DNA of 64,000 bases from Mobula hypostoma (Eukaryota). Below the pieces are notes generated by a model, which was not told the DNA's origin, did no database searches, and saw nothing but the letters and a program-made list of their open reading frames with translations. Location: contig NC_086097.1 in the NCBI RefSeq assembly GCF_963921235.1, forward strand, positions 94,738,001-94,802,000. Reading direction: 5' to 3'. A program made the position numbers and the translations under genes. This document shows positions 3,571-60,150 of this stretch, piece by piece. Numbering within the stretch: the stretch's first letter is position 1; every line of letters begins with the position of its first letter.

Positions 3571-4104
3571 TTACCAGAAAAAGAGTGATTAACAAAATAT
3601 TTAGTTAGTTTCTTTGTTTCATCAGCCACCAGCCAAAACTCACTGAAATTCACCAGCACCATGTTAAACCAGAAGTCATCTATTATGTAATGTAGCTCCA
3701 TACAGAGAATTTTTAACGTGGCTCTCTTCCAGGCTATGAATGTAACTCACTAATGCCTCTCATCAATATAATTCAGTGTAAATTATTGTCATTTGATAAC
3801 AGATATAATATTGTTTTTCCTTTGCCAAATGCCCAACTCGTACTTGCAATACCTCCCTTTATTACTTTACTAAAGTGAAACTCATAATGACAAATATGTA
3901 TTATGTAATATCAGTTTCCTGCTTCACAAATCAATGAAGTATTTTCAAGCAATTTTTTTGCAGGAGCTTATAATCAAGACATTAAAATTGTCTTAACCAT
4001 AAAACGTCACCGTGCTGAGTTGTATCTTCTGATTGTGAAGATATCAGTGACCATGGTCAATCTTAGTTCAGTTACTCAGTTGTCAGCACATTAAACTGGT
4101 CTCA

Positions 4105-4325
4105 TACTTCCTGGAGGCTGGACGGATTCCTGGGAGAAACTAAGCTGCCTGGGTCTGTACTGTCTGGAATTCAAAAGAATAATGATCTCACTAAAAATCA
4201 CAGAATTCTTACAGGACTTCACCGTTAAAATTCGGAGCTGATGGTTCCTCTGGCTGGATAGTCAAGAATTATGGGGTCACTGTCTCAAAATAAGCGGCCG
4301 GCCATTCAGCACAGAGAAGAGGTGA
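4105..4325 (+). mobile_element. Old CR1 3' fragment
   Basis: ctgggtctgtactgtctggaattcaaaagaat...ggggtcactgtctcaaaataagcggccggccattcagcacagag matches the CR1 3' ORF2 pattern. Confidence 0.65.
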
Positions 4326-4364
4326 CAGTGTAACTCCAGTTATAAATCAGTCCAACCTAAGTAT

Positions 4365-4870
4365 GTAAGAAAACTCATCTTCTCCTCTGTGCCAATGCCT
4401 CACAACCCTTAAATCTCCAATTTTAAAATGCAGTTGCCTCCTCTTTAAATAATGGCAATGATCCAGCCTCCATGACTCCGTGAGACTCATCATGCTCTGA
4501 GAGAGAAAAGTCCTGTGCACCTCAATTCTAAACGTAGCTCTGCCCCCCTCCCCCCGCAGCTCGAGTCTCCCCCTCACTGGTGGAAACATCTCAGCATCTA
4601 CCCTGTTGTGTCCTCTCAGGACTTTAGACCATAAAGACTGTAAGATATAGGAGCAGAATTGGGCATTCGGCCCATCGAATCTACTCTGCCATTTCATCAT
4701 GGCTGATTCCTTTTCCCCCTCAACCTTATTCTCCTGCCTTCTCCCTGTAACCTGTAAGACCATGTAATATAGGAGCAGAATCAGCCCATTCAGCCAAATT
4801 CTATACAGTTTATATGCAAGATCACCCCTCATTCTTTTAAACTATGAAGAATACAGGCCTAATTTCTTTA
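4365..4870 (-). mobile_element. Stacked CR1 3'-end fragments
   Basis: Repeated ccataagatataggagcagaatt-type 3' UTR motifs (about 4630 and 4760); MRGDL in ORF 4347-4832. Confidence 0.7.
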
Positions 4871-5579
4871 ATCCTTTATCACAGGGCAACAATTTCTCCC
4901 CTTAACAAAGCTGATATTTTTGACAAATTATCTGAGGCTGGAACAGTTCATACAGATGGGGTAAAACTGGAAGCTTCTCCTGTGTGTCTTGGGGTCAGGC
5001 TGATACAGCCACTGGTGACCCACCTCAGAAAATAACCCACTCCCAGAGTGACAAAGTTATACAGCATGGAAACAAGCCCTTCAGCCCACCCACTTATACT
5101 AACCCCTCACCATTCCCACACTATTGTCCCCATATCCCCATCAACTTCCTCTCATCCATACACTGGAGACAAATTCCAAGGAGAACACGCAAACACTGCC
5201 TGAGGACAGGATTGAACTCGGGCCCCTGGAGTGTGAGACAGCAGGTCTACCAGTTGTGCCTCTTCTCTTTGATTAAAACCACATGCAGAACATACGGGGA
5301 GATTAGCCACCTGTAATTCACCAGCAAGACAGGGATATTCATGTCTGAATACACACAGGCTGAGGTACTGAAATTGCTTGTACTCACAGAGGGAGCTGCC
5401 AGCAATAATAGATAGCATTGACGAAGGTCTCAGTACTGGGGCATGCATGGAGCTGCTGTTCAATTAGATCATCTGTCTCACCTGAATCTAAATCGTTTAC
5501 CCATCCCCGACCCCAGATTTTCTCACCCCAATCCTTCCCAACCTGATCCAATCCTTGCCACCCTAATCCATCCCATCCA

Positions 5580-6040
5580 AATCCTTTCTACCCTCCCACT
5601 AAATCCATCCCACCTCAATCCTTCCCACCCTCCCACTAAATTCATCACACCACTATCCTTCCCATCCTCCCACTAAATCCATCCCACCTCAATCCTTCCC
5701 ACCCTCCCACTAAATCCATCCCAGCTCAATCCTTCCCACCCTCCCACTAAATTCATCCCTAGTCCATCCCATCCAAATCCTTTCTACCCTCCCATTAAAT
5801 CCATCCCACCTCAATCCATCCCACCCTCCCACTAAATTCATCCCACCACTATCCTTCCCACCCTCCCACTAAGTTCATCCCACCTCAATCCTTCCCACCT
5901 TCCCACTAAATTCATCACACCACTATCCTTCCCACTCTCGCACTAAATCCATCCCATCCCAATCCTTCCCACTCTCCCACAATATCCATCCCACCTCAAT
6001 CCTTCCCACTCTCCCACTAAATCCATCCCACCTCAATCAT
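5580..6040. repeat. C-rich minisatellite, ~36-37 bp unit (cctcccactaaatccatcccacctcaatccttccca)
   Basis: About 12 imperfect tandem copies seen directly; followed by a polypyrimidine tract to about 6310. Confidence 0.9.
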
Positions 6041-8421
6041 TGTCCCCCAGTCCTCCCCAATCCTTCTTGTCTCAAAGCTTCCACCCACACCAAATCCTTT
6101 CCTTCCTCAGTCCTTCCCATATTCCCATTCCTTTCCTTTCCATCCCCTTCTTCTCTCCCTCCATCTCCATCCCCTTCCTGTCCCTTTCCATCAGCTTCCT
6201 CTCTATCTCCTCTCTACCTCCCTCTCCACTCCACTCTCCATCCCTTTTCTATCTCCCTCTCCATCACCCTCCTCATCCCTGCCTCTCTCCATGTTTGTCT
6301 CCTTCCCTCGACAGAGTGGGAAATCCCCAGTCTGTAGGGTTGTGCCCGGAGCCATGTCCTAAGCATGTAGGAAGAGTGCCACTTCAGATCAGTGGAGGGA
6401 GGGACCACCGAACCATTCCACTTACACCTGTGGTTTGACTCTAATTTCTCTCATATGGTTTGCCGAGTGCCTGTGTGTATGTCTGTGCCTGGAAGCTCTG
6501 GGTTTTATGTAATAAAATCGGTTGACTTGTGGCTGTTTTCAAACACAGCCAAAGGACAGGCAGTCTACAGACCACCCAAAACTTATTCATCCGGTCTCAT
6601 CTTAATGACTTGTATTTGGCAATTAAAAGAGCAGTGATACTGCTCGCGTTTGGCTTGTTATACAGTGAAATAGCAACTTCAGCTGCGTGTGCACGCTGAA
6701 GTCTACAGCTTGCTCTCAACAATTCCACTTAGTGTGTTATTGTGCATTCCTTCAGTACGATCAATAGCATCAGTGAACTGGCATCATTTTTCAATATGAT
6801 CAATTATTCCCCAGTTCCAAAACAACTGCAGCAATTTCATTTGTGTGGGGTGCGATTGATTTTATAAAGACATGCACAGTTGTCACTATTGCTTAACTAT
6901 CTCTGCCAGGCCTGGATAATTAATTTTAAAACTGTGAAATGACATTCCAAAAATAAGCAAGGGATCCAATCGTTATTAGACCAGCAGCTGGAGTTCAAGT
7001 CCATTGATCTTCAGATCTGAGTTCAAATTTCTCTGTGGCTGAAAGGTTTTAAATTTTAGGTAAGTAAATAAAATTGGAACTGAAAGAAATATAACTTTTG
7101 TTGGAGAGGCAGAAATAGCTCTGATGCCTATCACTCCAACCACTGGCCCTTTTTGATTGCTTTGGAGGTTTTCTCTACACTCCCTCAGGACATAGCTGTC
7201 CTTGGCTTAAGCAGAGTCAAAACTGCCCGTGACTGCCCACGTTGTTCTATTCCATGACTCTAGCTCATGGATGTTGGAGACTGTTGAATGCAGAGGGAGG
7301 GCAGGTAGAGTGGGGCAGGGGGGAGGAACCCTGAGCTGAGTTTTGGCTCTCAGAGAGCCAAAGGGGCAAATGGTAGAAAACCTAAAGCAGCCGGGGCAGG
7401 GGAGGGGGGAAGCGTGTGAAATGAGTCCAGGTTGCTCCATTGTCAGAGCCACAGCCTCTGCTGTGACTCGGGGCGGGTCTGACCTCAGGTTGCCAGAGCA
7501 GAGGGTGAAATGGAACCAATGGCTGACCCACTTTCTGCCTGAGCCGTCCACCCACTGGTGAACCTGAGCCAGCACGGCAGATGGAACTTCGGAGAGGTGG
7601 TTGGAAACTTACAGCCTGTGTCACCCCGATCACGTGGGCCACTGTACAACGAGAAAACACAAGCTGTGGTAAGTCACTTCCTCCACCCATACAGCCATAC
7701 TGTAACTGAGAGCTTGTTGCATAAACATCCTGTCAAGAGGCTGGAAAACACATTTGTACCCAACCACTAGGCAATAAGGCACCTGTCTCCTACACTATCA
7801 AGAACTGTGGTAAGCTCCCATCTTCTAGACTTCATTCTCTCTACAAAGACTCATCTAGGCACCCAATTTTGCCTGACATTTCCTGAAGCTGTTGTAGAGA
7901 TCTCAAAGCTGATAACCCATAGTTACATTCCCTCCTAATCAATTAACAATCTGTAGCGCTTATAAGCACAACACAGAAAACATCTCATCTGGTTCATAAT
8001 AACTTGGTACGGCAACTGCTCTGCCCAACACCGCAAGAAATTGCCAAGACTAGTGAGCACATCCCAGTTCATGAAGAAAACCAGCTTCCCCTGCATGGAC
8101 TCTGTCTGCATTTCCTACCACCCTGAGAAAGCAGCCAACATAATTAAAAACCCCTCCCGCCCCAGTTATTGTCTCTTCTCCCACCCTCCATTGAGCAGAA
8201 GATACAAAGCTCGGGAGCGTGCACTAGGATCCTGCACTTATAGGGCTATTGAATGGACTTGTTGAACAAAGAGAAACTCTTGATTTCCCAGTCTACCCCA
8301 TCGTGGCCTTTGTAGCTCAGGACAACTGAACTACAAAGGCCACTTTCTCTGTAACTGTATATTCTGTATTCCATCACTGATTTCCTCTTATACTGTACAG
8401 ATGGCAAGTAAGCAAAAACTT

Positions 8422-8554
8422 TTCAAGCAACACACATCAAAGTTGCTGGTGAAGGCAGCAGGCCAGGCAGCACCTCTAGGAAGAGGTACAGTCGACGTTT
8501 CGGGCTGGGACCCTTCGTCAGGACTAACTGAAGGAAGAGCTAGTAAGAGATTTG
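8422..8554 (-). mobile_element. Penelope-like element pLTR fragment with hammerhead motif
   Basis: Near-identical to parts of the copies at 10330-10627 and 47547-47678; flanked by the direct repeat AAAAACTT (8414-8421 and 8555-8562). Confidence 0.8.
8488..8527 (-). ncRNA. Minimal type-I hammerhead ribozyme motif, intact core
   Basis: Minus strand UUAGUC-CUGACGA-A-GGGU CCCA GCCC-GAAAC-GUC-GACUGU: stem I UAGUC/GACUG, core CUGANGA and GAAA, GUC cleavage triplet, palindromic ACGU helix III. Confidence 0.8.
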
Positions 8555-8811
8555 AAAAACTTCTCAATGTATCTCAGTGTGTGTGACAAGAATAAAGCTT
8601 ACCAAATCACGTAGGCACTAGGACAGGGATCCGCTCATAGGCACCCCAGGGTAATGGTGAATACAGTTTTATTCAAGCCTTCTGGCTCTTCCACAGAGTT
8701 TACGGTGAGGGTTTTCGAAGGATCTCACAGACATTCAGATGTGCAGTCTTTGATGCCGACAGTCATACATGGTCTACATGGATAGATATCCAGAACTGGG
8801 GCTTCACTTAC

Positions 8812-8919
8812 ATTGTCTCCCTTCAGCTAGAGAGGGCTGCAAATATTGGGCAGCAATCCTCTCAAATGGAGGGTTTTGAGCGAGGTAATGAGGAAAGCAG
8901 CTTCTAATGGCAGGAGGGT
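8812..8919 (-). other. Candidate 108-nt internal exon of an unknown transcript
   Basis: Acceptor ctgtcctttgattacag| and donor |gtaagt; open only in phase 1-1 as (D)PPAIRSCFPHYLAQNPPFERIAAQYLQPSLAEGRQ; no recognised homology. Confidence 0.3.
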
Positions 8920-9054
8920 CTGTAATCAAAGGACAGGTTGGAAAAGACTCAGAGGTGATGAAAGGAAACTTTATATGATACACAAGCGACCTGCCACCAT
9001 TGGGATGACGGAAAGCAAATGGATAAGATCCCTGAGTGGAAATAATAAATAACG

Positions 9055-9335
9055 AATGGAGCAGCCTCCTCACAGCTCCAGAGACCCGTGTTCAGTCCTG
9101 GCCTTGGATGCTGTCTGCATGGAGTTTGCACGTTCCCCCTGTAACTACATGGGATTCCTCCAGGTGCTCTGATTCCCTCCCATATCCTAAAGACATACGG
9201 GTCAGTAGGTTAATTGTAAAGGTGAGGTGGGGTGCTTGTGAGCACGTGAGGGGGACCAGGTTACAATGGGACATAGATGATGCGATTATCCTTAAAGGCT
9301 GTTGAGCTCAATTGGCCAAATGGCCTATTTCTATG
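9055..9335 (+). mobile_element. tRNA-derived V-type SINE with CR1-like tail
   Basis: cctcacagctccagagacccgtgttcagtcc...ggagtttgcacgttcccc...ctcccatatcctaaagac...taggttaattg. Confidence 0.8.
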
Positions 9336-10127: not shown

Positions 10128-10875
10128 CAAAGTTCAAAGTTGAAATTTTGTTATCGAAGTACATCTATGTCACCACATGCCAATTCTGAGACTCGTTTCC
10201 CTGTGGGCACACTCAGCAATCTATAGAATAGTAACTGTAACAGGATCAATGAAAGATCAACTGGAAGACAACAAACTGTGTAAATGCAAATGTAAATAAA
10301 TAGCAATAAATAATGAGAACATGAAATAACAAACAACACACATAGAAGTTGCTTGATAAAAGTCATATCCCTTTTACCAATCAACTGTCCATCTCTTGGC
10401 TCCATCCCTCCCCCTCCTGTCTTCTCCTATCATTTTGGATCTCCCCCTCCCCCTCCCACTTTCAAATCTCTTACTAGCTCTTCCTTCAGTTAGTCCTGAC
10501 GAAGGGTCTCGGCCCGGAACGTCGACTGTACCTCTTCCTAGAGATGCTGCCTGGCCTGCTGCGATCACCAGCAACTTTGATGTGTGTTGCTTGAAATTCC
10601 AGCATCTGCAGAATTCCTCGTGTTTGTATGAAATAATAAGCCCTATTTGTTGTGGGAACATCTCAATGGATGGGCAGGTGAATGTAGTTATCCCCCTGTG
10701 TTCAAGAGTCTGATGGTTGAGGGGTAGTAACTGTTCCCTGACCTTTGTGATGCGAGTCCTGAGGCTTTTGTACCTTCTACCTGATGGCAGCCACAAGAAA
10801 AGGGCATAGCCTGGGTGGTGAGGATCTCTGATGAGGGAGGCTGCTTTTCTACAACAACGTTTCATGTAGATGTCA
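10128..10875 (-). mobile_element. Rex/Babar LINE 3' fragment hosting a Penelope-type insertion
   Basis: RKAASLIRDPHHPGYALFLWLPSGRRYKSLRT; tail cgataacaaaatttcaactttgaactttg. Confidence 0.85.
10330..10627 (+). mobile_element. Penelope-like pLTR element with short inverted 5' copy; hammerhead motif at 10491-10528 (core mutated GAAA>GGAA)
   Basis: tagtcCTGACGAagggtctcggcccGGAACgtcgactg; caacacacatagaagttgct (10334-10353) is an inverted copy of agcaactttgatgtgtgttg; flanking direct repeat ATGAAATAA (10321-10329 and 10628-10636). Confidence 0.8.
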
Positions 10876-15010: not shown

Positions 15011-17294
15011 AAATGTCACCAATGTAAATCATGAATACCTTAAGTTCTAGAACTAATCATTGTGACACCATGATGTATGAATCAAGTATATTATATCTTC
15101 TGGATAAGACCAAAGATTGAGGGTCCTACATCCCCAGTCCTTACAGTCACATCCTTCTGCTCCTGACCACTGCCCAAATATAGGCAACTGCCTAATTTAA
15201 AGGTAGAGACTGTTTCATGGATCATCCTGCACAAGTATCTCACTCTGTCCATAAATTCTGCAGCTTGAACTCCAGCACAACAACTCCAAGCCACGTATCC
15301 TTAAGATGGAGACATATTCTGCAAGTGTGATTGTGGAAATTCTCACAATTCTCAGTAAGTCTTGTTGAATTTATTTAATTAGTTTCTATTTACTGGATAT
15401 TGGTTTTTTTAATGACGTAATCTACCAAAATAAATGAACCTATATTACTTTCACCCATACTTGCAGTGGTAGTTAATAGTGTTATTCTTCTGTTACTCAG
15501 TCAGCTGCCCCCACATGGGAGGAGTTCACAAGTAGAGTTATCAATAAAGTACAGCTGAGGTTCCTACAAAACTGGCGACCTAGTGTGATCTGCACTCTCC
15601 ATCAATACCGAACACGACAATATTTTCTTCTACTGTAAGCCTTCTAAAAATATAATCACATCAACTTTCACTAAGCATTGGACTAATTTTGAACACCTAC
15701 TGCTAGAAGCCTCCAGAAACCATCACAGTCATTGACAGGATCTCTTCCTCCCTGAGAACAAATTCCCATGATGATCAAATTCCTCACTTTGTTGACTTTG
15801 CCCTCCATTTAAGATCGCCTTGTGCATTTGCAAAGAGCTGTTTCCTCGTGTCTTTAGAACACAGATAGTGCTTTATCTTCACAATTTAATCCCTTCTGTA
15901 TTCATAATGGATTCACACTGCTGCCTCGCTACATTTACAATATACAGACTGCTGTACACAAAGAGAGCTGTTTCTTGAATGTAAAATTTAAACAGGGCAG
16001 TTTCCAATACACGCAGAATTAGCCCGTTTTAAAATGCATGTTAACACCTCGGTATGGCTGCACTTAAAACATACACAAAGATATTTCAATTTATTATATA
16101 TCTATCATGCTATTTCTCTGTGTTTATAATATACACATGCTAAGCCTACATACAAAGTCATGAATGGAAAAAATTGAGCATTGTGGGACTAGTGTTCTGA
16201 GCTGCAGATATTTCAATGCAAGGAATATTGTAGGACAGACAGGTGAGTTTAGGGCATGGATCAGCATGTGGAATTCTCACATTGTAGCCATTAGTGAGAC
16301 TTGGTTGCAGGAGGGGCAGGAATGTCAGCTCATTGTTCCAGACATTCCATTATTTTAGACATGATACAGTAGGAGGGATGAAAGGGGGAAAGGTGGTATT
16401 ACTAGTTAGGAAAAATGTCTCAGCAACGTTCTGTCAAGACAAACTGGAGAGCTCATCTAGTGAGGCTTTCTGGGTAGAACTGAGGAATGAATAAGAAAGG
16501 TATGCTCATGTTAATGGCATTATATTATGGATTCCCCAACTTTTTGCAGGATTTAGAGGAGCAAATTTGTAGAGAGGTCACAGGCTATTGCAAGAACCAT
16601 GAGGTTGTGATGACAGGTGATTTTAACTTTCCACGTATTGACTGGGACTTTCATACTGTAAAATGGCTGGATGGGAAAGAGTTTATCAAATGTGTTCTGG
16701 AAAGTTTCATACTAGTCCCAACAAGAAAGTGTGATAGTAGATCTCCTATTAAGGAATGAGACAGGGCAGGGAACTGAAATTTGTGTAGGGGAACGCTTTG
16801 CATCTAGTGATCATAATGCCATTAGTTTTAAGGTAATTATGGTAAAAGATGGGTCTGTCTGATCCTCAGGTTGAGATTCTAAACTGGAGAAAGGCCAATT
16901 TTGATGGTATCAGAAAGGATCTGGCGTGTGGATTGGGACAGGCTGTTTTCTGACAAAGGTGTACTTGGTAAGTGGGAGGCCTTCAAAGGGAGATTTTGAG
17001 AGTACGGAGTTTGTATGTTCCCATCAGAATAACAGGCAAGGATAAGAGGTTTAGCGAACTTTTGTTTTTGAAAGATATTGAAGCCCATGGTTAAGAAAAA
17101 AGAGGTGCATAGTAGGTATAGGCAGGTAGGAACAAATAAGGTACTTGTGGAGTATAAAAAATGCAAGAGAAAGAAATCAAGTGGGCTAAAAGAAGACATG
17201 AGGTTGCTGTAGCAGACAAGGTGAAGTAGAATCCTACGGGTTTTTGTAGACATATTAAGAATTTTAGAGTTGTACACTTTGATAATAAAAGAAG

Positions 17295-18071
17295 TGCTAC
17301 ACCCTGGTTAAGCTTTTACTGCTAAAACTGTAGGCTATTTCATTTAATCGTTTTCTGTAAAAGAAGTGTGTTCTGCTGGTAGTGTTTGGGTTGCTGTTAA
17401 AGATAGGGGTTGTGATGTTCAGCTTAGGAATGTCAGGTCAGCCAATCAGGATGGTGGAATTAGAAGAAGGTTCTAGAGAAAGTTGGACAGAGAGGTTTTA
17501 TGATGGACACTAAAGGGGTCGAGGTCCTTTCTCAGCGGGAGATAGAGAGAGAAGAAGATCGAGAGAACCAGCAGTAGGATTCGATCCAATCAGAATGGGC
17601 GATTCGATGGAATTCCAGATGGAAAGTTCAATTGGTGATCGGTAATAGGAGTTGGCTCCGTGAGTACAAGGACACCTCTAGCTTTTGAAAGGTTTGAACT
17701 CCAATTTTATGCACATTTGGCTGTTTTAATTATAATAGACCCTTTTCTATTTTTTCTTCTCTTTCTTCTTTAACAATCATTTGATTAAGTTGATATTCAT
17801 AAATATACTTTCTTTATAATTGTATGCAGTGTACGATCTGTTATATCTTGCCGTCCGGAAATTGCAAATGGGCAGCATTTACACAGTATTCACTCAGATT
17901 GGAGTGTGGATGGTCGAAACATCCAGGCTCTCCCAGTCTGGTGGGACCCAAGTCATAAAGATCCTCGATGTACAGAGTTCAAGAAAGGTGGTTTTCTCAC
18001 TAGTCTATTGGCTTGTTAGTGAGGGGCTAACTAGCCGTGTTTCTAGAGACACCTGGTAAGAAGGGGTTTCA
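17295..18071. mobile_element. Solo LTR (777 bp)
   Basis: TG...CA ends (tgctacaccc / ggggtttca) with exact 4-bp TSD GAAG (17291-17294 and 18072-18075); CCAAT motif at about 17442. Confidence 0.8.
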
Positions 18072-19635
18072 GAAGAATTTCAGAGATGTATACTTTGATA
18101 ATAAATGAACCTTTGAAGAGTAAAAGGACATCAAGGGACAATATTGGTCCTCTGGAAGATCAGAGTGGTAACGTATGCATGGAGCTGAAAGAGATGGGGG
18201 AAGTCTTAAATAGATTTTTTCCATTTGTATTTACTTGGGTGACGGACATGGAGTCTATCGAAGTGAGACAAAGCAACAGCAAGGTTTTGGACCCTATAAA
18301 TATTACAGTGGAGAAGGTAATTGCTGTCTTGAGGCAAAGTAGAGTAATAAATCTTCAGGGCCTGATAAGATGTTCCCTCGGACCATGTGGGAGACTAGTG
18401 CAAAGATATTTAACCACAGGTGATGTACTGAAGGATTGAAGGTTAGCTAATGTTGTTCCATTATTTAAGAAAGGCTCTAAGAATAAGATGAGAAATGATA
18501 GGTCAGTGAGCCTGACATCAGCAGTGGGAAAGTTTCAGAAAGGCATACTAAGGGACAGTATATATGAGTATTTGGATAGACAGGGACTGATTATGGATAG
18601 TCAGCATGGCTTTGTTTGTGGTAATAAATCTAACCAATCTTACAGAGATTTTCAAGGAAGGTACCAGGAAAGCAGATGAAGGCAAGGCAGTGGATGTTGC
18701 CTACATGGACCTCAGCAAGGCCTATGACAAGGTCCCACGTGGAATGCTGGTCAAGAAGGCTCAGTCACTTGGCACTCAAAATGAGGTAGTAAATTGGATC
18801 AGACATTGGCTTCGCAGAAGAAGCCAGAGAGTGATTGTAGATGATTGCCTCTCTGACTGGAGGCCTGTGATCAGTGGAGTGCTGCACTGGTGCTGGGTCC
18901 ATTGCTGTTTGTCATCTATATCAATGATCTAGATGATTATGTGGTTAACTGGATCAGCGAATTTGTGGATGACACCAAGACTGGGGTGTAGAGGACAAGG
19001 AAAACTATCAAAGCTTGCCACAGGATCTGTACCAGATGGAGAAATTAGCTGAAAAGTGGCAGATTGACTGACAAGTGCAAGGTGTTGTTCTTTGGGAGCG
19101 CCAACCAGGTTAGGTCTTAAATGGTGAGTGTTAGGGCACTGAGGAGTGCGGAAGAACAGTGAGGCCTAGGAAGACGGATCCATAATTCATTGAAATTGGC
19201 ATCACAGGTTTAGTAGACAGAGTTGTAAAGATAGCCTTTGGCACATTGGCCTTCAGTAATCAATATACTGAGTGCAGGAGTTGGGCTGTTATGTTGAAAA
19301 TGTATAAGGTGTTGGTGAGACCAATTTGGAGTATTATGCCCTGTTTTTTCACCTACTGCCAGGAAAGATGTCACTAAGATTGAAAGAGTGCAGAGAAGAT
19401 TTATGAGCTTGTTGCTGGAATTTGAGGACCTGAATTATAGGGAAAGGTTGAATGGGTTAGGTTAAAGATTGAGGGGGGATTTGATCAAGGTATACACAAT
19501 TATGAAGTGAGGTAAAAGCAAGATTGGAAGAAACTGGAACTAGAGGACAGGGTTAAGGATGAAATTGAAATGTTTAAGGGGAACAAGAGGAGGAACTTCT
19601 TCACTCAAAGGGAATTAAGAGTAAGTTGGATAGTA

Positions 19636-20337: not shown

Positions 20338-20886
20338 CATTCAGTGGCCACTTTATTAGGTACAGGAGTAAAACCTGGTGTGGTCTTTTTCTGTTATAGC
20401 CCATCCACTTCAAGGGTTGGCATGTAGTGCAATCAGAGATGCTTTCCTGAACACCACTGTTGTAACACATGGCTAGTTCGGTTCCCATCGCTTTCCTGTC
20501 AGTGCAACCCAGTCTGGCTATGCTCCATGACCTCTCTCATTAACAAGGCATTTTCACCCACAGAACTGCCGCTCACTGGATGTTTTTTTTTTGCTTTTTG
20601 CGCCATTTTCTGTAAACTCCAGAGACTGTTGTGCGTGAAAATCCCAGGAGATCAGCAGTTCCTGAGATACTCAAACCACCCCATCTGGCACCAACAATCA
20701 TTCCACATTCAAAGTCACTAAGATCACATTTCTTCCCCATTCTGCTATTTTGTCTGAACAGCAAATGAACCCCTTGACCATGTCTGCATGCTTTTATGCA
20801 TTGAGTTGATGCCACATGATTGACTGATTAGGTATTTGCATTAACGAGCAGATTTGCGAATGTACCTATAAAATGGCCACTGAGTA
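20338..20886 (-). mobile_element. Tc1/mariner non-autonomous deletion derivative
   Basis: TIRs cattcagtggccactttattaggtaca / tgtacctataaaatggccactgagta with TA flanks; HTH remnant GKKCDLSDFECGMIVGARWGGLSISGTADLLGFSRTTVS. Confidence 0.9.
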
Positions 20887-27806: not shown

Positions 27807-27945
27807 ACACAAAACGCTGGAGGAACTCAGGAGGCCCGAAACGTCGACGGTTTACTCTTTTCCATTGATGCTGCCTGGGCTGCTGAGTTCCTCCAGCATT
27901 TTGTGTGTGTTTCTCGGATCTCCAGCATCTGCAGATTTTCTCCTG
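27807..27945. mobile_element. Fold-back Penelope-type pLTR remnant with half hammerhead
   Basis: 24-nt inverted repeat 27807-27830 / 27883-27906 (one mismatch) enclosing ggcccGAAACGTCgac. Confidence 0.75.
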
Positions 27946-30728: not shown

Positions 30729-31083
30729 GGCGTGCGCAGCCTCTCCAGTGAAATGATATCATATTTGTTAAATAGGGTACCATGCTCAATTCAATTCTGA
30801 TTTGATGGAGACAGCCGTGAGAAGCACAGAGGAACATCTGGAGAAACTTCTGGAATACCTGGTTCGCTGCCGCTGCTACTGTGTGATTGAGAATCTCCGG
30901 AGGGAAGGCCCCAAATCCTCGGCTTTGCCTGCTGCTGGCGACCGGGGCTGGGGTCGAAGCGTTTGGCAGAGATGGTGCTCGGTGCTCGGTGTCAGAGGAA
31001 TATTGTATCATTTCTTAATGCATGCATTACTAAATGACAATAAAAGAGGACTGTGTGTCCTCATAATCTAATCTAATCTAAAT
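30729..31083 (+). mobile_element. Internally deleted copy of the 49684-50370 element
   Basis: High identity to 49684-50370; (TAATC)n tail. Confidence 0.85.
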
Positions 31084-31689
31084 GTAATCTAAGTTACTTT
31101 GACCGTGGAATGATTGTTGGTGCCAGATGGGATGGTTTGAGCATCTCAGAAACTGCTGATCTTCTGGGATTCTCAAGCACAACAGTCTCTAGGGTTTACA
31201 GAAAACCAGAAAAAAAATCCAGTGAGCGTCAGTTCTGTGGGCAAAAATGCCATGTTAATGAGAGAGGTCAGAGGAGAATGGCCAGACTGGTTCAAGCTGA
31301 CAGAGTAACTCAAATAACCATACTTTACAACAGTGGTGTGCAGAAGAGCATCTCGGAACACACATGTTGAACCCTGAAGTGGATGGGCTGCAGCAGAAGA
31401 AGACCATGAAACATGTACACTCCACTTTATTATGTACGGGAGGTTTCTAATAAAGTAGTCACAACAGTTGTCTTCTATCATCTAAACTGCATGCAACTGA
31501 AAGTCCCTTAACCAAGGGAGTAGGAATGCCTTCTGTGACTGTGTGTGTGGCTCTGCAGAGTTAACAGAGGGAGTTAGCTGTGGCATTAAGCTTCAAAGTG
31601 CAGTTCTGGTGGCTAATTGGAATTGCGCACTGATCGGTGTACTCATCAGACCTAAGCCCAGTGGACAAGCTCACTTACGGGACACTACC

Positions 31690-31975
31690 AGAGTGTAGTG
31701 GTTACCACGGCGCTATTATAGCTCAGGGTGTCAGGATTCAGAGTTCAATCCCAGCATCCTTTGTAAGGAGCTTATACATCCTCCCCATGGAATGCACAGT
31801 TCTCCTCCGGGTGCCCTGCTTTCCTCCCACAGTCCAAAGATGTACCAGTTGGTAGGCTAATTGGTCATTGTAAATTGTCCCCTGGTTAGGCTAGGGTTAA
31901 CTCGGGATTTTCAGGGCTGCTGGCGGTGCAGCTCGAAGGGCTGGAAGGAACTATTCCACACAATATCTCTAAAGA
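31690..31975 (+). mobile_element. tRNA-derived V-type SINE
   Basis: gagttcaatcccagc B box; ttcctcccacagtccaaagatgtacc...taattggtcattgtaaattgtccc. Confidence 0.8.
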
Positions 31976-34244: not shown

Positions 34245-34512
34245 TCTAGAGGTGCAGCTAATGGAGCTGCTGCCTCACAGCTTCAGAGATCTGAGTTCAG
34301 TTCTGGCCTTGGCACTGTTTGTGTGGAATTTCCCTGCAACTGTGTGGGTTTCCTCCAAACGCTCTGGTTTCCTCCCACATCCCAAAGACATGGCCTCTAT
34401 TGTGTCGCTGGGGAAAACTGGGGAGAATAAAACAGAATGAGTGTAAATGAGTGGTTGAGAGTCAGCACAGAGTCAACGGGCTGAAGGGCCCATGCTCTAT
34501 GAGTCTATGGCT
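34245..34512 (+). mobile_element. tRNA-derived V-type SINE with CR1 tail
   Basis: gctgctgcctcacagcttcagagatctgagttc...ggtttcctcccacatcccaaagac...ctctatgagtctatg. Confidence 0.8.
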
Positions 34513-37297: not shown

Positions 37298-39580
37298 GTA
37301 AGACCACAAGACATAGGAGCAGAATTAGGCCATCTGGCCCATCAGTCTGCTCTGCCGTTCAATCATGGCTGATCCTTTTTTTCCCGCCTCCTCAACCCCA
37401 GTTCCTGGCCTTTTCCCCGTAACCTTTAATGCCATGTCCAATTAAGAACCTATCAATCTCTGTCTTAAATACACCCAATGACCTGGCCTCCACAGCTGCA
37501 TATGGCAACAAACTCACCACCTTTGGCTAAAGAAATTTCTCTCCATCTCTGTTTTGAAAGGGCGCCCCTCTGTCCTGAGGCTGTGCCCTCTTGTCCTAGA
37601 CTCTCCCACCATGGGAAACATCCTTTCTACTCTGTCTAGGCCTTTCAACATTTGAAAGGTTTCAATGAGATCTCCCCTCATCCTTCTGACTTCCAGCGAG
37701 TACAGACCTGCAAGTTAACCTTTAAGGTGTTCTGCACAAGGACTCCCAAGGCCCTTTGCATCTCAGATTTTTGGATTTTCTCCCCATTTAGAAAATAGTC
37801 TGCATATTTATTTCTACTACCAAAGTGTATGACCATGCATTTTCCAACATTGAATTTCATTTGCCACTTTCTTGCCCATTCTCTTAATCTGCCTAAGCCC
37901 TTCTGCACCCTACCTGTTTCCTCAACACTACCTGTCCATCTACCAATCTTTGTATCATCTGCAAACTTGGCAACAAAGCCATCTATTCCATCATCTAAAT
38001 CATTTATATACAGCATAAAAAGAAGCGCTCCCAACACCGACCCCTACAGAACGCCACTAGTCACTGGCAGCCAACCAGAAAAGGATCCTTTTATTCCCAT
38101 TCCCTGCCTCCTACTAATCAGCCAACGCTCTAAACATGTTCGTAAATTTCCTGTAATACCATGGGCTCTTGGTAAGCAGCCTCATGTGTGGCACCTTGTC
38201 AAAAGTCTTCTGAAAGTCCAAATATACAACATCCACTACATCCCCTTTATCTATCCTACTTGCAATCTCCTCAAAGAATTCCAACAGGTTAGTCAGGCAG
38301 GATTTTCCCTGAAGGAAACCATGCTGACTTTGTACTATATTGCCCTGTGTCGCCAAGTACTCCATAACCTCATCCTTAACAATTGACTCTAACATCTTCC
38401 CAGCCACTGAGGTCAGGCTAACTGGTCTATAATTTCCTTTCTGCTGCCTTCCTCCTTTCTTAAAGAGTGGAGTGACATTTGCAATTTTCAAGTCCTCTGG
38501 TGCCATGCCAGAGTCCAATGATTTTTGAAAAATCAGTTCTAATGCCACCACAATCTCTAACGCTACCTCTTTCAGAACCCTAGGGTGCAGTTCATCTGGT
38601 CCAGGGGACTTACTTTAGGTCTCTCAGCTTTTTGAGCACATTCTCTCTTGTAATAGTAACTGCACCCACTTCTCTTCCTTCACACACTACAACATCAGGC
38701 ACACTGCTAGTGTCTTCCACAGTGAAGACTAATGCAAAATACTCATTTAGTTCATCAGGCATCTCCTTGCCCCCTGTTATTATTTCTCCTGCCTCATTTT
38801 CTAGTGGCCCTATGTCCACTCTCATTTCTCTTTTATTTTTAACATACTTAAAAAAACTTTTACTATCCACTTTGATATTAATTTGCTAGCTTGCTTTCAT
38901 ATTTCATCTTTTCCCTTCTAATGATTTTTTTAGTTACTCTCTGTAGGTTTTTAAAAACTTCCCAATTCCCTATCTTCCCAAGAATTTTTGCTTTGTTGTA
39001 TGCCCTTTCTTTTGCTTTTACAATAGCTTTGACTTCCCTTGTCAGCCATGGTTGTACTATTTTACCATTTGAGTATTTCTTCATCTTTGGAACACCTATC
39101 CTGCACCTTCCTCATTTTTCCCAGAAACGCACACCACTGCTTCTCTGCTGACATCCCTGCCAGCAGCTCCTTCCAATTTACTTTCTCACACCACTGTAAT
39201 TTCCCTTACTCCACTGAAATACTGCTACATTAGACTTTACTTTCACCCTGTCAAATTTCAAGTTGAACTCAATCATATCGTGATCACTGCCTCCTAAGGG
39301 TTCTTTTACCTTAAGCTCCCTAATCGCCTCTGGTTCATTACATAACACCCAATCCTGCATAGCTGATTCCCTCTTGGGCTCAATGACAAACTGGTCTAAA
39401 AAGCTATCTCTTAGGCATTCAACGAACTCACTCTCTTGAGGTCCATTACCAACCTGATTTTCCCAAACGACCTGCATGTTAAAATTACCCATGACTACCA
39501 TAACATTGCCCTTTTGGCTTGCCTTTTCTAATTCCTGTTGTGAGCTGTGGTCCACCTCCCAGCCACGGTTGGGAGGCCCG
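37298..39580 (-). mobile_element. Decayed CR1 ORF2 (EN to RT, internal deletion near 37710)
   Basis: VMGNFNM, LGGSDHDMIEF, NYRPVSLTSVAGK, YLDFQKTFDKVPH, KFADDTKIG; tail cctatgtcttgtggtctta. Confidence 0.93.
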
Positions 39581-40044
39581 GATATAACTTATTGGAAGGT
39601 AGGGCAAGATGGTGAAAAGGAGAGATGCAGTCAGGACCTCAGCCTATGGGAGACCTGAGGAGGAAAGAAGAACTGGCAAACAGTGTGGGAATTAGCAAAG
39701 AATGTTTATTCCTTGCTTGTTTGGCTCACTGAGATAGAACTAGGGAAATCTGAGAATGGGCAATAATTCTGGATGGCACCTGCAGAGGCAATGTTGAAGG
39801 TTGATGAGTTTGCATCATGATTCAGATAAATTAGCGATGGAAAGGGGCTCTGTCCTGAAGAGAAATTGGGGAGGCATGGAGATTGTCAAAGGCATGGCCT
39901 ATGATAAGGTGGGGACCAGGAGAGAGGGATTACTGAGGGGTGAGTGCTGACAAGTTGGCAAGGGCTGGAGAATAACAATAGTTGTGCCTGCTGAGGTAAA
40001 GATAAGAGCAAGTGAAATCACAGCAGGTTACAGCAAGAGTAGTT

Positions 40045-42947: not shown

Positions 42948-44449
42948 GGATAAAATCAATCTCGTTACACACCCCATTTGAATAGGTCCCCTGACCGATC
43001 TCTTCCTGATTATCCAGTTCACTGTAACTTGACTTAAATCAACATTTTGACAAGAGGAAAAAGCTGTCAGCGGTAATCCTTTCCAGTCTCCTGGTTCGCT
43101 ATTTTACAGGCCAAATTCAGCAGCTCATGAAAAAGGGCCATCTGTTTGTCAGCGATTTGCGGGCCTCGTAACTCACTGCAGGAAGAGGTACTCAAAATAA
43201 ACTGATGGAATCGCTCCCACGGCTCGGTGAAAAGCCGATCTGTCTGTATTGCACAACCCGGGAATCATGTCTCCTTGAGCACTCCCCTCTTCACTGTCCA
43301 TCTTCATGCTCATCCTCACGTACTCATCTGATGCATGTCCAGTCAGTGTGTTCCTCATGCAGTCCTCCTGCCTTGACCGGGAAGTGCTGGGATTTTACTG
43401 CCACTGCCAGGGAGAAGTATTGACCTACAGGGCCCCCTACATACCCTAGAGCTTTCCCCAGTTTGTGTCCCTGTATGGTGGCAGGCTTCTCTGCCGCTCC
43501 GTCCTGATGGACATGGCTGGTCTCCTGCCTCTGCTCCTTCCACAGCCCTTCCTTCTCTTCTGGCCAATGCACTGCATCCTCTGTGGACCCCTCAGCCAGC
43601 TTCTGACTGTAGACGATGCCGGCCCCCCAGCAGTGATAGTGGGCACCCAGTTAAATAAAGAGCAGCTGGAGGAACTCGATGTGTCAGGCAGCACCCGTGG
43701 AGGGAAATGGGGAGATGATTCTTCTTCTGGACATGCAGAATAGAGGAGATTTCCCCTGTGAGTGAGATGACCTTACGCACGTGTACTGCATAAGAAGGCT
43801 GGACGGCTTCTAAAATAACAGACAGAGATTCCATTTTCAGTCTGAGTGCATGACCTATGATTCAAGGAGTGCCAAGTCTACAAACAGGCCATTCAGCACA
43901 CTGTGCTAGCATCTGTGCTCCAAACAAACCCCCTTCTGCTCAAGTTAAGCCCCAGCTTGGCTGGTCTTACTTCATCGGTTGCCTCTGGTATTAATAAAGG
44001 TGTATACTGTATAAAATTTACCTGTTTTTCTGAAGCAGAAGTGAAAACTTCTGTCAATCTAAGCAAGTCTTCATTCCCGCGCTTGAGATCTCTCACAGAG
44101 CTTGGGATCGCCCCTCTTCTCTCCATTAACCAAGCCCTTGCAAGAATACGGTGAGGTAGATTGTGAGGCCATTTGAACTAGTTAAATGTCTGAGATCCTT
44201 CATTGTGTGCTCTGATGAAGTTTCTCTCTCCACGGATACTGCCTGACCTGCCGAATGTTTCCAGCAGCTTCCATTTTCATTCTGCATTTCACCCAGCTCA
44301 TCCCAACACATCATCCGTGCTGAAAGACACTGGGAATTCACAGGCTTTGGTACAGAAGGAGACTATCTGGACCTTAGTGACTATGGCAGCTTGCTACCAG
44401 ATCAATTCATCAGTTCCATCCACCAGCCTCATGGATGTAACAACGAAGG

Positions 44450-47168
44450 ATGTGATCGAGGCAGAGGAATGAAAGGTGGGGGAGTAGCATTGCTTGTTAG
44501 GGAAAATATTACAGCAGTGCTTAGGCAGGACAGATTAGAGGGCTTGTCTACTGAGTCCTTATGGGTGGAGCTGAGAAACAGGAAAGGTATGGCCGCATTA
44601 GTGGGATTGTATTACAGACCACCCAATAGTCAACGAGAATTGGAAGAGCAAATCTGCAGGGAAATAGCAAGCAATAGCAGGAAACATAAAGTTGTGGTGG
44701 TAGGGGATTTTAATTTTCCATATATTGATTGGGACTCCCATACTGTTAGGGGTCTAGATGGTTTATAGTCTGTAAAATGTGTTCAGGAAAGTTTTCTAAA
44801 TCAATATATAGAGGGACCAACTAGAGGGGATGCAATATTGGATGTCCTGTAAGGAAACGAGTTAGGACAAGTGACGGAAGTCTGTGCAGGGGAGCACTTT
44901 GGTTCCAGTGATCATAACACCATTAATTTCAACTTGATCATGGACAAGGATAGATCTGGTCCTAGGGTTGAGATTCTTAACTGGAAGAAGGCCAAATATG
45001 AAGAAATGAGAAAGGATCTAAAAAGCGTAGATTGGGACAGGTTGTTCTCTGGCAAGGATGTGATCGGTAGGTGGGAAGCCTTCAAAGGAGAAATTTTGAG
45101 AGTACAGAATTTGTATGTTCCTGTCAGGATTAAAGGAAAAGTGAATAGGAATAAGGAACCTTGGTTCTCAAGGGATATTGCAACTCTGATAAAGAAGAAG
45201 AGGGAGTTGTATGACATGTATAGGAAGCAGGGAGTAAATAAAGTGCTTGAGGAGTATAAGAAGTGCAAGAAAATACTTAAGAAGGAAATCAGGAGGGCTA
45301 AAAGAAGACATGAGGTTGCATTGGCATCAAAGTGAAGGATAATCCAAAGAGCTTTTCCAGGTATATTAAGAGCAAAAGGATTGTAAGGGATAAAATTGGT
45401 CCTCTTGAAGATCAGAGTGGTCGCCTATGTGCGGAACCAAAGGAAATGGGGGAGATCTTAAATAGGTTTTTGCGTCTGTATTTACTAAGGAAACTGGCAT
45501 GAAGTCTATGGAATTAGGGGAAACAAGTAGTGAGATCATGGAAACTGTACAGATTGAAAAGGAGGAGGTACTTGCTGTCTTGAGGAAAATTAAAGTGGGT
45601 AAATCCCCGGGACCTGACAGAGTGTTCCCTCGGACCTTGAAGGAGACTGGTGTTGAAATTGCGGGGGCCCTAGCAGAAATATTTAAAATGTCGCCGTCTA
45701 CGGGTGAAGTGCCAGAGGATTGGAGAGTAGCTCATGTTGTTCCGTTGTTTGAAAAAGGATCGAAAAGTAATCCGGGAAATTATAGGCCGGTGAGTTTAAC
45801 GTCAGTAGTAGGTAAGTTATTGGAGGGAGTACTAAGAGACAGAATCTACAAGCGTTTGGATAGACAGGGACGTATTAGGGAGAGTCAACATGGCTTTGTG
45901 CATGGCAGGTCATGTTTGACCAATCTATTGGAGTTTTTTGAGGAGGTTACCAGGAAAGTGGATGAAGGGAAGGCAGTGGATATTGTCTACATGGACTTCT
46001 GTAAGGCCTTTGACAAGGTCCCACATGGGAGGTTAGTTAGGAAAATTCAGTCGCTAGGTATACATGGAGAGGTGGTAAATTGGATCAGACATTGGCTCAA
46101 TGGAAGAAGTCAAAGAGTGGTAGTAGAGAATTGCTTCTCCGAGTGGAGGCCTGTGACTAGTGGTGTGCCACAGGGATCAGTGCTGGGTCCATTGTTATTT
46201 GTCATCTACATCAATGATCTGGATGATAATGTGGTAAATTGGATCAGCAAATTTGCTGATGATACAAAGATTGGAGGTGTAGTAGACAGTGAGGAAGGTT
46301 TTCAGAGCCTGCAGAGGGACTTGGACCAGCTGGAAAAATGGGCTGAAAAATGGCAGATGAAGTTTAATGCAGACAAGTGTGAGGTATTGCATGTTGGAAG
46401 GATAAACCAAGGTAGAACATACAGGGTTAATGGTAAGGCACTGAGGAGTGCAGTGGAACAGAGGGATCTGGGAATACAGATACCAAATGCCCTAAAAGTG
46501 GCGTCACAGGTAGATAGGGTCGTAAAGAGAGCTTTTGGTACATTGGCCTTTATTAATCGAAGTATTGGGTATAAGAGCTGGAATGTTATGATGAGGTTGT
46601 ATAAGGCACTGGTGAGGCCAAATCTGGAGTATTGTGTTCAGTTTTTGTCACCAAATTACAGGAAGGATATAAATAAGGTTGAAAGAGTGCAGAGAAGGTT
46701 TACAAGGATGTTGCCAGGACTTGAGAAACTTAGTTACAGAGAAAGGTTGAATAGGTTAGGACTTTATTCCCTGGAGCGTAGAAGAATGAGGGGAGATTTG
46801 ATAGAGGTATATAAAATTATGATGGGTATAGATAGAGTGAATGCAAGCAGGCTTTTTCCACTGAGGCTAGGGGAGAAAAAAACCAGAGGACATGGGTTAA
46901 GGGTGAGGGGGGAAAAGTTTAAAGGGAACATTAGGGGGGGCTTCTTCACACAGAGAGTGGTGGGAGTATGGAATGAGCTGCCAGACGAGGTGGTAAATGC
47001 AGGTTCTTTTTTAACATTTAAGAATAAATTGGACAGATACATGGATGGGAGGTGTATGGAGGGATATAGTCCGTGTGCAGGTCAGTGGGACTAGGCAGAA
47101 AATGGTTCGGCACAGCCAAGAAGGGCCAAAAGGCCTGTTTCTGTGCTGTAGTTTCTATGGTTCTATGG
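44450..47168 (+). mobile_element. Young 5'-truncated CR1 LINE
   Basis: Near-continuous ORF2 with only a few stops/frameshifts; (TTCTATGG)2 tail; gcacag/ctgtgc 3' UTR hairpin. Confidence 0.96.
45499..47094 (+). pseudogene. CR1 ORF2 reverse transcriptase domain (531 aa open stretch; upstream EN disrupted)
   Basis: KSPGPD, NYRPVSLTS, QHGF, YMDFCKAFDKVPH, SGVPQGSVLGP, KFADD, RPNLEYC. Confidence 0.93.
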
Positions 47169-47169
47169 A

Positions 47170-47545
47170 TCTAAGAGGCACAGCAGCATCCTGACTTTCT
47201 CGGAAGGTTAAGGGGATTTCGCATTTCACTGAAAACTCTGACAGGTATACTGTTGAAAATATCCTGACTGGTTATACCAAGGTCTGGCACGACAATTTGA
47301 ATGTACTGTACCAGAATGTAAGAAGCTTCAGAGAGCAGTGGGCTCAATCCAATACACCGGGACACATCCCTCCCCAACACCTACAGTAGGCACAGCCCCT
47401 TGAAGGCAACATCTACAACCAAAGATCCCCACCAGCTGGAATCATCATGCAGCAAGTACAGAAGCCTGAAGTCCCATACCACCATATTCAACAACAGCTA
47501 CTTCCCTTCAACCATTTGCTTCCTGAACCAACCTGTACAATCACA
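47170..47545 (+). mobile_element. Old Rex/Babar 3' fragment
   Basis: KYRSLKSHTTIFNNSYFPSTICFLN. Confidence 0.75.
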
Positions 47546-47546
47546 T

Positions 47547-47678
47547 AAACAACGGGAATTCTGCAGATGCTCGAAATTCAAGCAACACACATCAAAGTTG
47601 CTGGTGAACGCAGCAGGCCAGGCAGCATCTCTAGGAAGAGGTACAGTCGACGTTTCAGGCCAAGACCCTTCGTCAGGA
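47547..47678 (-). mobile_element. Penelope-like pLTR fragment; hammerhead core at 47644-47678
   Basis: Minus strand tcCTGACGAagggtcttggcctGAAACGTCgactg; homology to the other copies stops 2 nt upstream of the core. Confidence 0.8.
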
Positions 47679-54099: not shown

Positions 54100-55455
54100 T
54101 GGGAGGGTGCCGTCAGCAGAGTTACCACTTCACAGCTCCAGAGACTCGAGTTTGATCGTGACCGCGGGTTTTGCCTGTGTGGAGTTCACATGTTCGCCCT
54201 CTTCTTGTGAGGGATTGTTGGGTTGCTCCAGTTTCCTCGCACATCCCAAAGACAGAGAACAGAGAACATTACAGCAGGAGCAAGACCTCTGGCCCTCAAT
54301 GTCGCATGGAACTAATTAAACTAGTAATTAACTACTTAACTAAGCTAATTCCTTCTGGCTATACAATGACCATATCCCTGCATTCTCTGCACATTCATAT
54401 GCCCTTCTAAAGCCTCTTAAATGCCTCCATTGTATTTGCCTCCACCGCCCCCCCGGCAGCACATTCCAGGCGCTCACTCCCTTTTGTGTAAAAAAAACTG
54501 ATTTCAGACACTCCCCACCCTTCGTGTAAAAAAAACTGTCCTGTTCTCCTTTTTGAACTTAGCCCCCACCTTAAATACATGTCCTCTAGTATTAGACATT
54601 TCAACCCTGGGAAATGAAATGAAATATCTTTATTGTCATTGCATAGTACAATTTGTCATGCACCAATACAGCGAAAATGAGTCTGCAACTCTTGTACTCA
54701 ATGCTATAAAACAACAAATAAAATAAATAATCAATAAATAACATCAAGTAACCAGCCAGTACAACCAGCAACCATAAAACCATAAAAAAGATACCTGTCT
54801 GTTTATCTTTCTATCCACGCTTCTCATCATCGTGTAGATTTCTACCAGGTATCCCCTTAGCCTCTACCACTCAAGAGAAATTCAAGTTTGTTCATTCACT
54901 CCTTATAGGACATGCCCTCTAATCCAAGCAATGTCTTCTGCACCCTTCTCCAAAGCCTCCACATCCTTTCTATAACGGGGTGATCAGAACTGAATGCCGT
55001 CCTCCAGAGCTTTATAAGCTGCAGCATAACTTCCTGACTCTTGAATTCAATGCCTTAACAAATAAAGACAAGCATGCCGTACGCCTTCTTTACCAATCAA
55101 TCTGTGCAGCCATATTGAGCATCTTCCAAAATCCCTCTGTGAAGGGTCCTGCCATGAACAGTGTACTCTCCCTTTACATGTGATCTCCTAAAGTGCAATA
55201 ACTCACACTAATTGTGGTTGAAACTCCACCTGGCATTTCTCCGTCCTTATCTGCAACTGATCTACTATATGTAATGTGGCTTGGTAGGTTAACTAGCCAC
55301 TGTTAACTATTCAGGGTGTGTAAGTGAGAGTTAGAATCTAGGAGAGTTTGTGGAAGTGCTGGAGAGGGTAGGTTATAGAGAATTAAGTAGCTCTGATGCT
55401 ATTGCACTAAGAGATGGCATCAGCTCAATGAACCAAATAGCCTCCTTCTACTTCA
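54100..55455 (+). mobile_element. V-type SINE split by a minus-strand CR1 3' fragment (about 54255-55265)
   Basis: SINE head through cacatcccaaagac (about 54252), resuming ttggtaggttaactagccac at about 55280; CR1 tail agaacagagaac. Confidence 0.7.
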
Positions 55456-59954: not shown

Positions 59955-60150
59955 AGATTCTGCCCTATACCTACACTCTAGGGGCAAGTTACAGTGGCCA
60001 ATTAACCTGACAACTCACATGCCATTGAGAAGAAACTGGAGCACCCAGAGAGAACCAAAAGGAGAGCATGTAAACTCCACACAGATAGCATCTGAGCTCA
60101 GGACCAAATCTGGATCTCTGGAGGTGAGATGAAACTATGCTATTGTGTAA
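59955..60150 (-). mobile_element. V-type SINE fragment
   Basis: Minus strand tgtgtggagtttacatgctctcc...gttaattggccactgtaacttgcccct. Confidence 0.75.

Follow-up and report, generated by a model that had tools for sequence, protein, structure and literature searches.

The motif on the minus strand at 8488–8527 of a 64,000-nt stretch of Mobula hypostoma DNA (the window) is a real copy of the minimal hammerhead ribozyme of Penelope-like elements (PLEs). In our preferred reading, to which we give a probability of about 0.85, it is the type-I minimal hammerhead of the pseudo-LTR (pLTR) of a hugely amplified ray PLE family, and it rides as a passenger in the insertion at 8427–8554, which was dead on arrival. 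Taken alone, this copy carries little weight, since such relics are very numerous and the kind of ribozyme-bearing retroelement behind them is known. Its value is that of a clean, dated example: a PLE insertion that lacks the tail, was copied from uncleaved RNA and has had its empty site verified. The motif and its carrier occupy the following positions.

8488–8527, minus strand: type-I minimal hammerhead motif with intact core (strict descriptor match)
8427–8554, minus strand: 128-nt insertion from a high-copy Penelope-like family, comprising its 3′ end (pLTR part), 5′-truncated and without the tail (self-BLAST, target-site duplication, empty site)
8414–8426, no strand: copy 1 of the target-site duplication (TSD), AT-rich, in agreement with the empty-site allele (direct repeat)
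8555–8567, no strand: copy 2 of the TSD, 12/13 identical to copy 1 with the mismatch at 8563 (direct repeat)

The minus-strand sequence from 8527 to 8488 agrees letter for letter with the reading given in the earlier note, and the parts named there, an intact core, a 5-bp helix I, a 4-bp helix II and a loop-less palindromic ACGU, are all present. Helix I is formed by 8526–8522 with 8493–8489 (5 bp including one U-G) and is followed by C3–A9 of the core at 8521–8515 and by the unpaired A8514, the bulged base between positions 9 and 10.1. Helix II (4 bp) pairs 8513–8510 with 8505–8502, starting with G10.1–C11.1 (G8513–C8502) and ending with a U-G, and loop II lies at 8509–8506. G12-A13-A14 are found at 8501–8499, the palindromic ACGU (15.2–16.2) at 8498–8495 without a loop 3, and C17 at 8494; the predicted cut is between 8494 and 8493. 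The core thus reads CUGANGA / GAAA / UH in type-I topology.

A strict minimal-hammerhead descriptor (helix I of at least 4 bp, helix II of at least 3 bp) found this motif as its single match in the window and nothing when the full window was dinucleotide-shuffled 500 times. With a relaxed descriptor, two window sites were found, the motif and one at 47676, against two matches in 500 shuffles. Rfam hammerhead models expect a helix III. The covariance-model check with these models that the earlier note proposed left the motif unmatched: no match was obtained at the gathering threshold over the whole window, and the six matches at E ≤ 10 over 8200–8800 include no ribozyme. The assignment to a Penelope-type type-I minimal hammerhead that needs a dimer is nevertheless borne out, with all traits given for metazoan PLE pLTR hammerheads (min-HHRs) in the accessible text of Cervera and De la Pena (2014, PMC4209133): the same type-I topology, the intact core, the bulge between 9 and 10.1, the G10.1–C11.1 pair, the palindromic 15.2–16.2 without loop 3 and the 5-bp helix I. 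In a monomer, helix III cannot close. The min-HHRs of that text are likewise for the most part solitary, stem from truncated PLEs and have opposite-strand neighbours; helix II is of 7–8 bp in Schistosoma and of 4 bp here, and rays are not mentioned in the accessible text.

The 13-nt direct repeat (8414–8426 and 8555–8567) encloses exactly 128 nt, and such a repeat pair 141 nt apart occurs at only 5 of 63,840 window positions, the other four being inside a tandem array. Contigs of four sequencing runs (X1, X5, X9 and X10, of 24) were aligned to 8000–9200 and bore out these boundaries; organism A is that of the window, run X5 stands for organism B and run X10 for organism C. The site is empty in organism C: one 661-nt X10 contig (record 13) joins 8341–8422 directly to 8564–9130, and this allele is shorter by exactly 141 nt, that is, the 128-nt insert plus the 13-nt target copy. 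Organism B carries the insertion, with X5 contigs running into the element from both flanks (8084–8448 and 8529–9135). The flanks differ at 16 of 972 nt between A and B and at 29 of 649 nt (4.5%) between A and C. From these divergences and the empty site in C, the insertion is, as judged from the contigs, young and yet common to two species labels (A and B). The possibility that it began at the hammerhead cut site was considered and ruled out; the copy begins 61 nt upstream of the cut. A hairpin at 8302–8344, with a stem of ~18 bp and 70 nt from the insertion, shows a depth of ~40–270 against ~10, as for a moderately multi-copy, MITE-like sequence.

Among the sites listed, the copy differs from the family majority at no fewer than four (8454, 8473, 8506 and 8508); the two within the motif (8506 and 8508) are both in loop II. 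One may ask whether the host has taken the insertion into service, be it as an alternative exon or as a ribozyme with a regulatory role within an intron, as it is common to organisms A and B, keeps an intact core and bears an acceptor-like signal (see below). Such an exaptation is extremely improbable in our judgment: the insertion is young and absent from organism C at 4.5% flank divergence, the differences from the majority (at least four listed sites in 128 nt) are in line with neutral decay, and no host gene was detected in the window.

Other copies of the family in the window were located by self-BLAST, which gave matches at 10460–10596 (+; 95.6% over 137 nt), 47577–47678 (−; 94.1%) and 27834–27914 (+; 77.4%). 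With their adjoining pieces, these copies are as follows.

10333–10627, plus strand: second family insertion, made up of an inverted 3′-end piece (~10333–10357), a forward copy and a ~37-nt tail (self-BLAST, repeat tests)
47541–47678, minus strand: third copy, with its truncation point immediately 5′ of an intact core, a G10.1–U11.1 wobble and the tail (self-BLAST, relaxed descriptor)
27807–27945, plus strand: fourth copy, more diverged and of another subfamily, made up of an inverted piece (27807–27836) and a forward copy without the CUGANGA half, with the tail

The hammerhead of the second insertion lies at 10490–10529 with a core change, A13 to G, and this insertion has its own TSD-like repeat (10321–10332 and 10628–10639, 11/12 identical). 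The copies at 8.5 and 10.4 kb form an inverted pair, 8421–8557 (−) and 10460–10596 (+), of 137 bp and 95.6% identity, which are two independent insertions 1.9 kb apart. That they might be outward-facing arms of one composite insertion was ruled out by their separate TSDs and also by the empty-site contig, which shows that the sequence as far as 9130 belongs to the original locus.

The repeat family is very abundant. In run X1, which may be the window's own source and is not independent of it, 57,397 contigs align to 8000–9200 and are stacked over 8410–8573. Their summed depth is ~10^7 over the repeat versus 10.4 on the flank, a roughly million-fold excess that is not a copy number. The high-copy short repeat of the earlier note is borne out by three more copies in the window and the X1 pile-up, with the qualification that the insert is no self-contained short unit and represents a truncated part of something longer. 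The abundance seems far above the 4,000–9,000 motifs given for coelacanth and Xenopus in the available part of PMC4209133, the present depths giving no true copy count. A profile search with the open frame of the repeat matched four proteins among 8000 long candidates (Mobula hypostoma, M. birostris twice and Hemitrygon akajei) and none among 2301 near-length candidates. As all four are ray host gene models, they place the family in rays. No description of the family in rays or sharks was found in the literature, with the proviso that Repbase/Dfam, subscription papers and supplements may contain one. A pattern scan of viral contigs for family loci with long flanks returned none, and four pattern-scan matches in metagenome contigs were rejected as GC-rich chance matches lacking the hammerhead.

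Among the loose ends listed for X1, X5 and X10 contigs, subfamilies diverge just outside 8488 and 8524/8525, which are the edges of the hammerhead. Contigs whose match is confined to this interval are many, with loose ends of 155–183 at 8488 and of 78–313 at 8524/8525. Since divergence sets in on both sides, the hammerhead is the block shared by the subfamilies, which suggests, from the contig alignments, selection on it in the parent elements. In the three full window copies, which are few and close, 26 of 27 pairing cells are paired, with two one-sided and no two-sided changes (0/9 pairs).

As far as sequence can tell, the structural hallmarks of a Penelope-like element are clear in the window copies. 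The 5′ truncation is variable, all four copies beginning at different points. A ~37-nt tail is present in three of four copies and is missing from that at 8427–8554. Among the contig loose ends listed, there are two family-wide classes of 3′ ends, one at 8421/8422 with the tail and one at 8426/8427 with unrelated flanks, and the family continues beyond the 8427–8554 fragment in 5′ direction (C-rich) as well as in 3′ direction (tail). Inverted 3′-end pieces stand at the 5′ side of two of four copies, those at 10.3 and 27.8 kb and not those at 8.5 and 47.6 kb; their scores of 35 and 45 compare with null maxima of 25 (n = 2803) and 31 (n = 2813). Truncation at the 5′ end, an optional tail, inverted 5′ pieces and an AT-rich target are PLE insertion features according to the accessible text of PMC8557442, and they are explained by two internal reverse transcriptase (RT) start sites in that of PMC11167929.

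The protein side was searched too. Pfam domains in 279 window open reading frames (ORFs) comprise LINE-type RT and endonuclease, ALKBH8_N, HTH and a few weak strays, with no GIY-YIG and no RT tied to the repeat. A single RT/GIY-YIG motif match in a six-frame scan was spurious, and the profile search for a protein link returned host gene models alone, with no RT/GIY-YIG ORF joined to the repeat. We infer the link of the repeat to such an ORF from its anatomy.

A non-autonomous SINE-like or retrozyme-like family with a cycle of its own and a circular RNA intermediate would also account for copies that are all short (~130–300 nt) and very abundant and for the lack of an ORF link. Solo monomers are indeed described as retrozyme offspring in the accessible part of 10.64898/2026.07.22.740005. 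In that source and in PMC7229834, so far as they are available, metazoan non-LTR retrozymes resemble the ray copy in being non-coding repeats akin to PLE pLTRs and bearing a type-I hammerhead, but consist of a fixed unit repeated in tandem, one hammerhead per unit, and give circular RNAs, while the ray copy is solo and the family variably truncated. No motif-bearing tandem units were found, the four differing 5′ ends indicate that there is no fixed unit, and both the tail, present in only some copies, and the inverted 5′ pieces are signatures of PLEs. In addition, the motif is minimal and not of the canonical loop-loop type of retrozymes (PMC7229834, as far as its text is accessible). We therefore hold this alternative to be very unlikely. 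The seeding of retrozyme-like circles suggested in the earlier note likewise finds no support, as no hammerhead-bearing tandem array appears among the 24 TRF rows.

All four window copies span the hammerhead cut site and were therefore made from uncleaved RNA. Under the preferred reading of a PLE insertion, the mechanism may be drawn by analogy from the available text of Frangieh et al. (2024, PMC11167929) on Poseidon PAc of Anolis carolinensis. There, two 3′ end points lie a 30–40-nt tail apart, the target is AT-rich, the hammerhead is upstream of the tail and copies arise from uncleaved RNA, all as in the ray family. The PAc ORF begins at stem II, whereas no ORF start was found for the ray family. 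By this analogy, the element endonuclease would have nicked the AT-rich 13-nt site, and RT, starting from the inner initiation point, the one that leaves no tail, would have reverse-transcribed 128 nt of uncleaved element RNA, through the hammerhead. Synthesis would then have halted and repair would have duplicated the target, after the lineage of organism C (run X10) had split off and before the divergence of A and B. The uncleaved template agrees with the view that hammerhead cleavage is dispensable for PLE insertion. In the parent element, the motif would most likely be a weak processing signal in tandem transcripts, assisted by dimers and protein.

The earlier note further proposed that the motif could cut any minus-strand transcript through the locus. 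This is not supported for a lone copy with a helix I predicted to be blocked, a core predicted to misfold and an inverted partner. The nearest intact core on the same strand is 39,155 nt away. In folding of the genomic context, the pairing probability of helix I is at most 0.07, and its 5′ strand is occupied by a predicted hairpin.

8523–8544, minus strand: predicted 7-bp hairpin (8544–8538 with 8529–8523) that occupies the 5′ strand of helix I (folding, pair probability 0.71–0.97)

With random 60-nt upstream sequence, the median helix I probability is 0.81, and values of 0.07 or less arise in 8% of 300 trials. The hairpin would thus be only mildly unusual, since random upstream sequence blocks helix I equally in that share of trials. 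Core bases 5–8 are predicted to pair with the cleavage-site strand, with probabilities of 0.70–0.99 for six of eight 5′ starts and of 0.48 and 0.06 for the other two. The double hammerhead has a folding energy of −17.9 kcal/mol versus −27.0 kcal/mol for two misfolded monomers and −30.0 kcal/mol for the best dimer. Nearest-neighbour energies omit core tertiary contacts and proteins, and inactivity is thus a prediction. In a read-through transcript, the whole motif could be drawn into a 137-bp duplex of −264 kcal/mol with the inverted copy that lies 1.9 kb away. If transcribed through, the inverted pair could yield long dsRNA or be a substrate for A-to-I editing.

The accessible literature is in keeping with these predictions. 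Monomeric min-HHRs show no cleavage and dimers low cleavage (PMC4209133, available part); the anole hammerhead needs the protein of the element, is dispensable for insertion and has no RNA-seq ends at its site (PMC11167929, as accessible); and one of nine dimers cleaves in Xenopus (10.64898/2026.07.22.740005, accessible portion). As to transcription, no host exon was detected in the window by a search that would miss small exons. From run X9, guessed to be RNA, 3412 contigs align, one of which spans unique flank (8528–8793) at a depth of 4.2, is of undefined strand and is possibly DNA. Taking the folding models and this literature together, the copy at 8488–8527 probably cuts little or nothing at this locus.

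That this copy is active and cleaves minus-strand transcripts of the host, together with family copies in trans or with the 47.6-kb copy in cis, is accordingly judged very unlikely. The best arguments for this reading are the intact core, the confinement of majority-differing sites in the motif to loop II, and the probably plentiful family RNA (the 3412 X9 contigs, with one on unique flank). They are outweighed by a helix I probability of 0.07 or less in context, core misfolding at 0.70–0.99 in most contexts, a double hammerhead 9–12 kcal/mol less stable than the alternatives, and the possible 137-bp duplex of −264 kcal/mol with the inverted copy. The published monomer and dimer tests and the need for protein (PMC4209133, PMC11167929 and 10.64898/2026.07.22.740005, each as far as available) and the lack of a host exon found in the window point the same way.

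Just upstream of the motif lies a second signal of possible relevance. The sequence yUnAy is the branch-site consensus.

8528–8547, minus strand: splice-acceptor-like signal, with yUnAy at 8547–8543, 10 pyrimidines and AG at 8529–8528, directly adjoining the motif

AGs with 10 of 10 upstream pyrimidines number 15 of 9372 in the window, two of which belong to this repeat family; the acceptor region is pyrimidine-rich in general. The ray RefSeq models P0001–P0004 (STARD3NL, CoA synthase, SIRT3 and a lectin-like gene) contain translated pieces of the hammerhead repeat, which suggests exonization or annotation capture. Over the region searched, the M. birostris model P0002 and P0007 share 96% identity, and their alignment runs up to TAQT. 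After TAQT, P0007 continues with G, five paralogs with D and P0002 with VSPDEG. The codons of G, D and V all have G as their first base, in keeping with a phase-1 exon boundary that connects to the counterpart of base 8527. The repeat match of P0004 also begins at VSP; those of P0001 and P0003 do not. Going by the proteins alone, and with a model that may be ab initio, the Mobula gene model P0002 appears to enter the repeat by splicing at the base equivalent to 8527.

Folding gives this position a further meaning. The helix I probability is at most 0.02 when the RNA includes the 5′ part of the insert versus 0.94 when it starts at 8527, and this rise led us to the idea of a hammerhead gated by splicing. 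The ray Penelope pLTR would retain an intron that ends just before helix I, the last bases of the intron would pair with the helix I 5′ strand, and splicing would switch helix I on; scattered copies would be cryptic acceptors that put the hammerhead into host mRNAs. The idea is a tentative one and, in our estimate, unlikely to be true. The core misfold remains in RNA starting at 8527, so that a partner or protein would still be required after splicing. If true, the gate would be a vertebrate counterpart of the arrangement in Drosophila virilis Penelope, where a 3′ splice site at the helix I 5′ end is known (PMC4209133; Schostak et al. 2008, PMC2377424; both as available), against a predicted one here. 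According to the same accessible texts, the D. virilis hammerhead differs from the ray motif in that its helix I is of 2 bp and its helix III short, and the intron of that element is verified, whereas the ray fragment offers an acceptor-like signal alone, with no donor inside the fragment. Among the papers found, judging by titles and abstract openings, none deals with a splice site or exonization with Penelope hammerheads. Should the layout of an acceptor next to helix I be real, it would provide a testable link, in a vertebrate, between retained PLE introns and weak hammerheads.

The window holds other repeats besides. LINE-type relics with endonuclease and RT domains lie at 44247–47091 (+), 37681–39588 (−), 57745–58185 (+) and 16484–18929 (+). 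In the first, a frame of 542 aa at 45466–47091 is still open (RVT_1, E = 6e-35); this ORF has no exact match in the protein collection. HTH_23 matches at 31077–31367 (+) and 20576–20827 (−) fall in a repeat pair, 20381–20731 and 31080–31406, that is possibly a DNA-transposon relic. A second dispersed short repeat family, SINE-like and of 68–79% identity, is found at 9055–9196, 1640–1722, 31803–31840, 34260–34391, 54130–54254 and 60061–60132. At 5521–6280, 12.5 tandem copies of a C-rich 37-nt unit lead into a pyrimidine-rich tract, and further tandem arrays with units of 49, 59, 60 and 71 nt occur elsewhere in the window.
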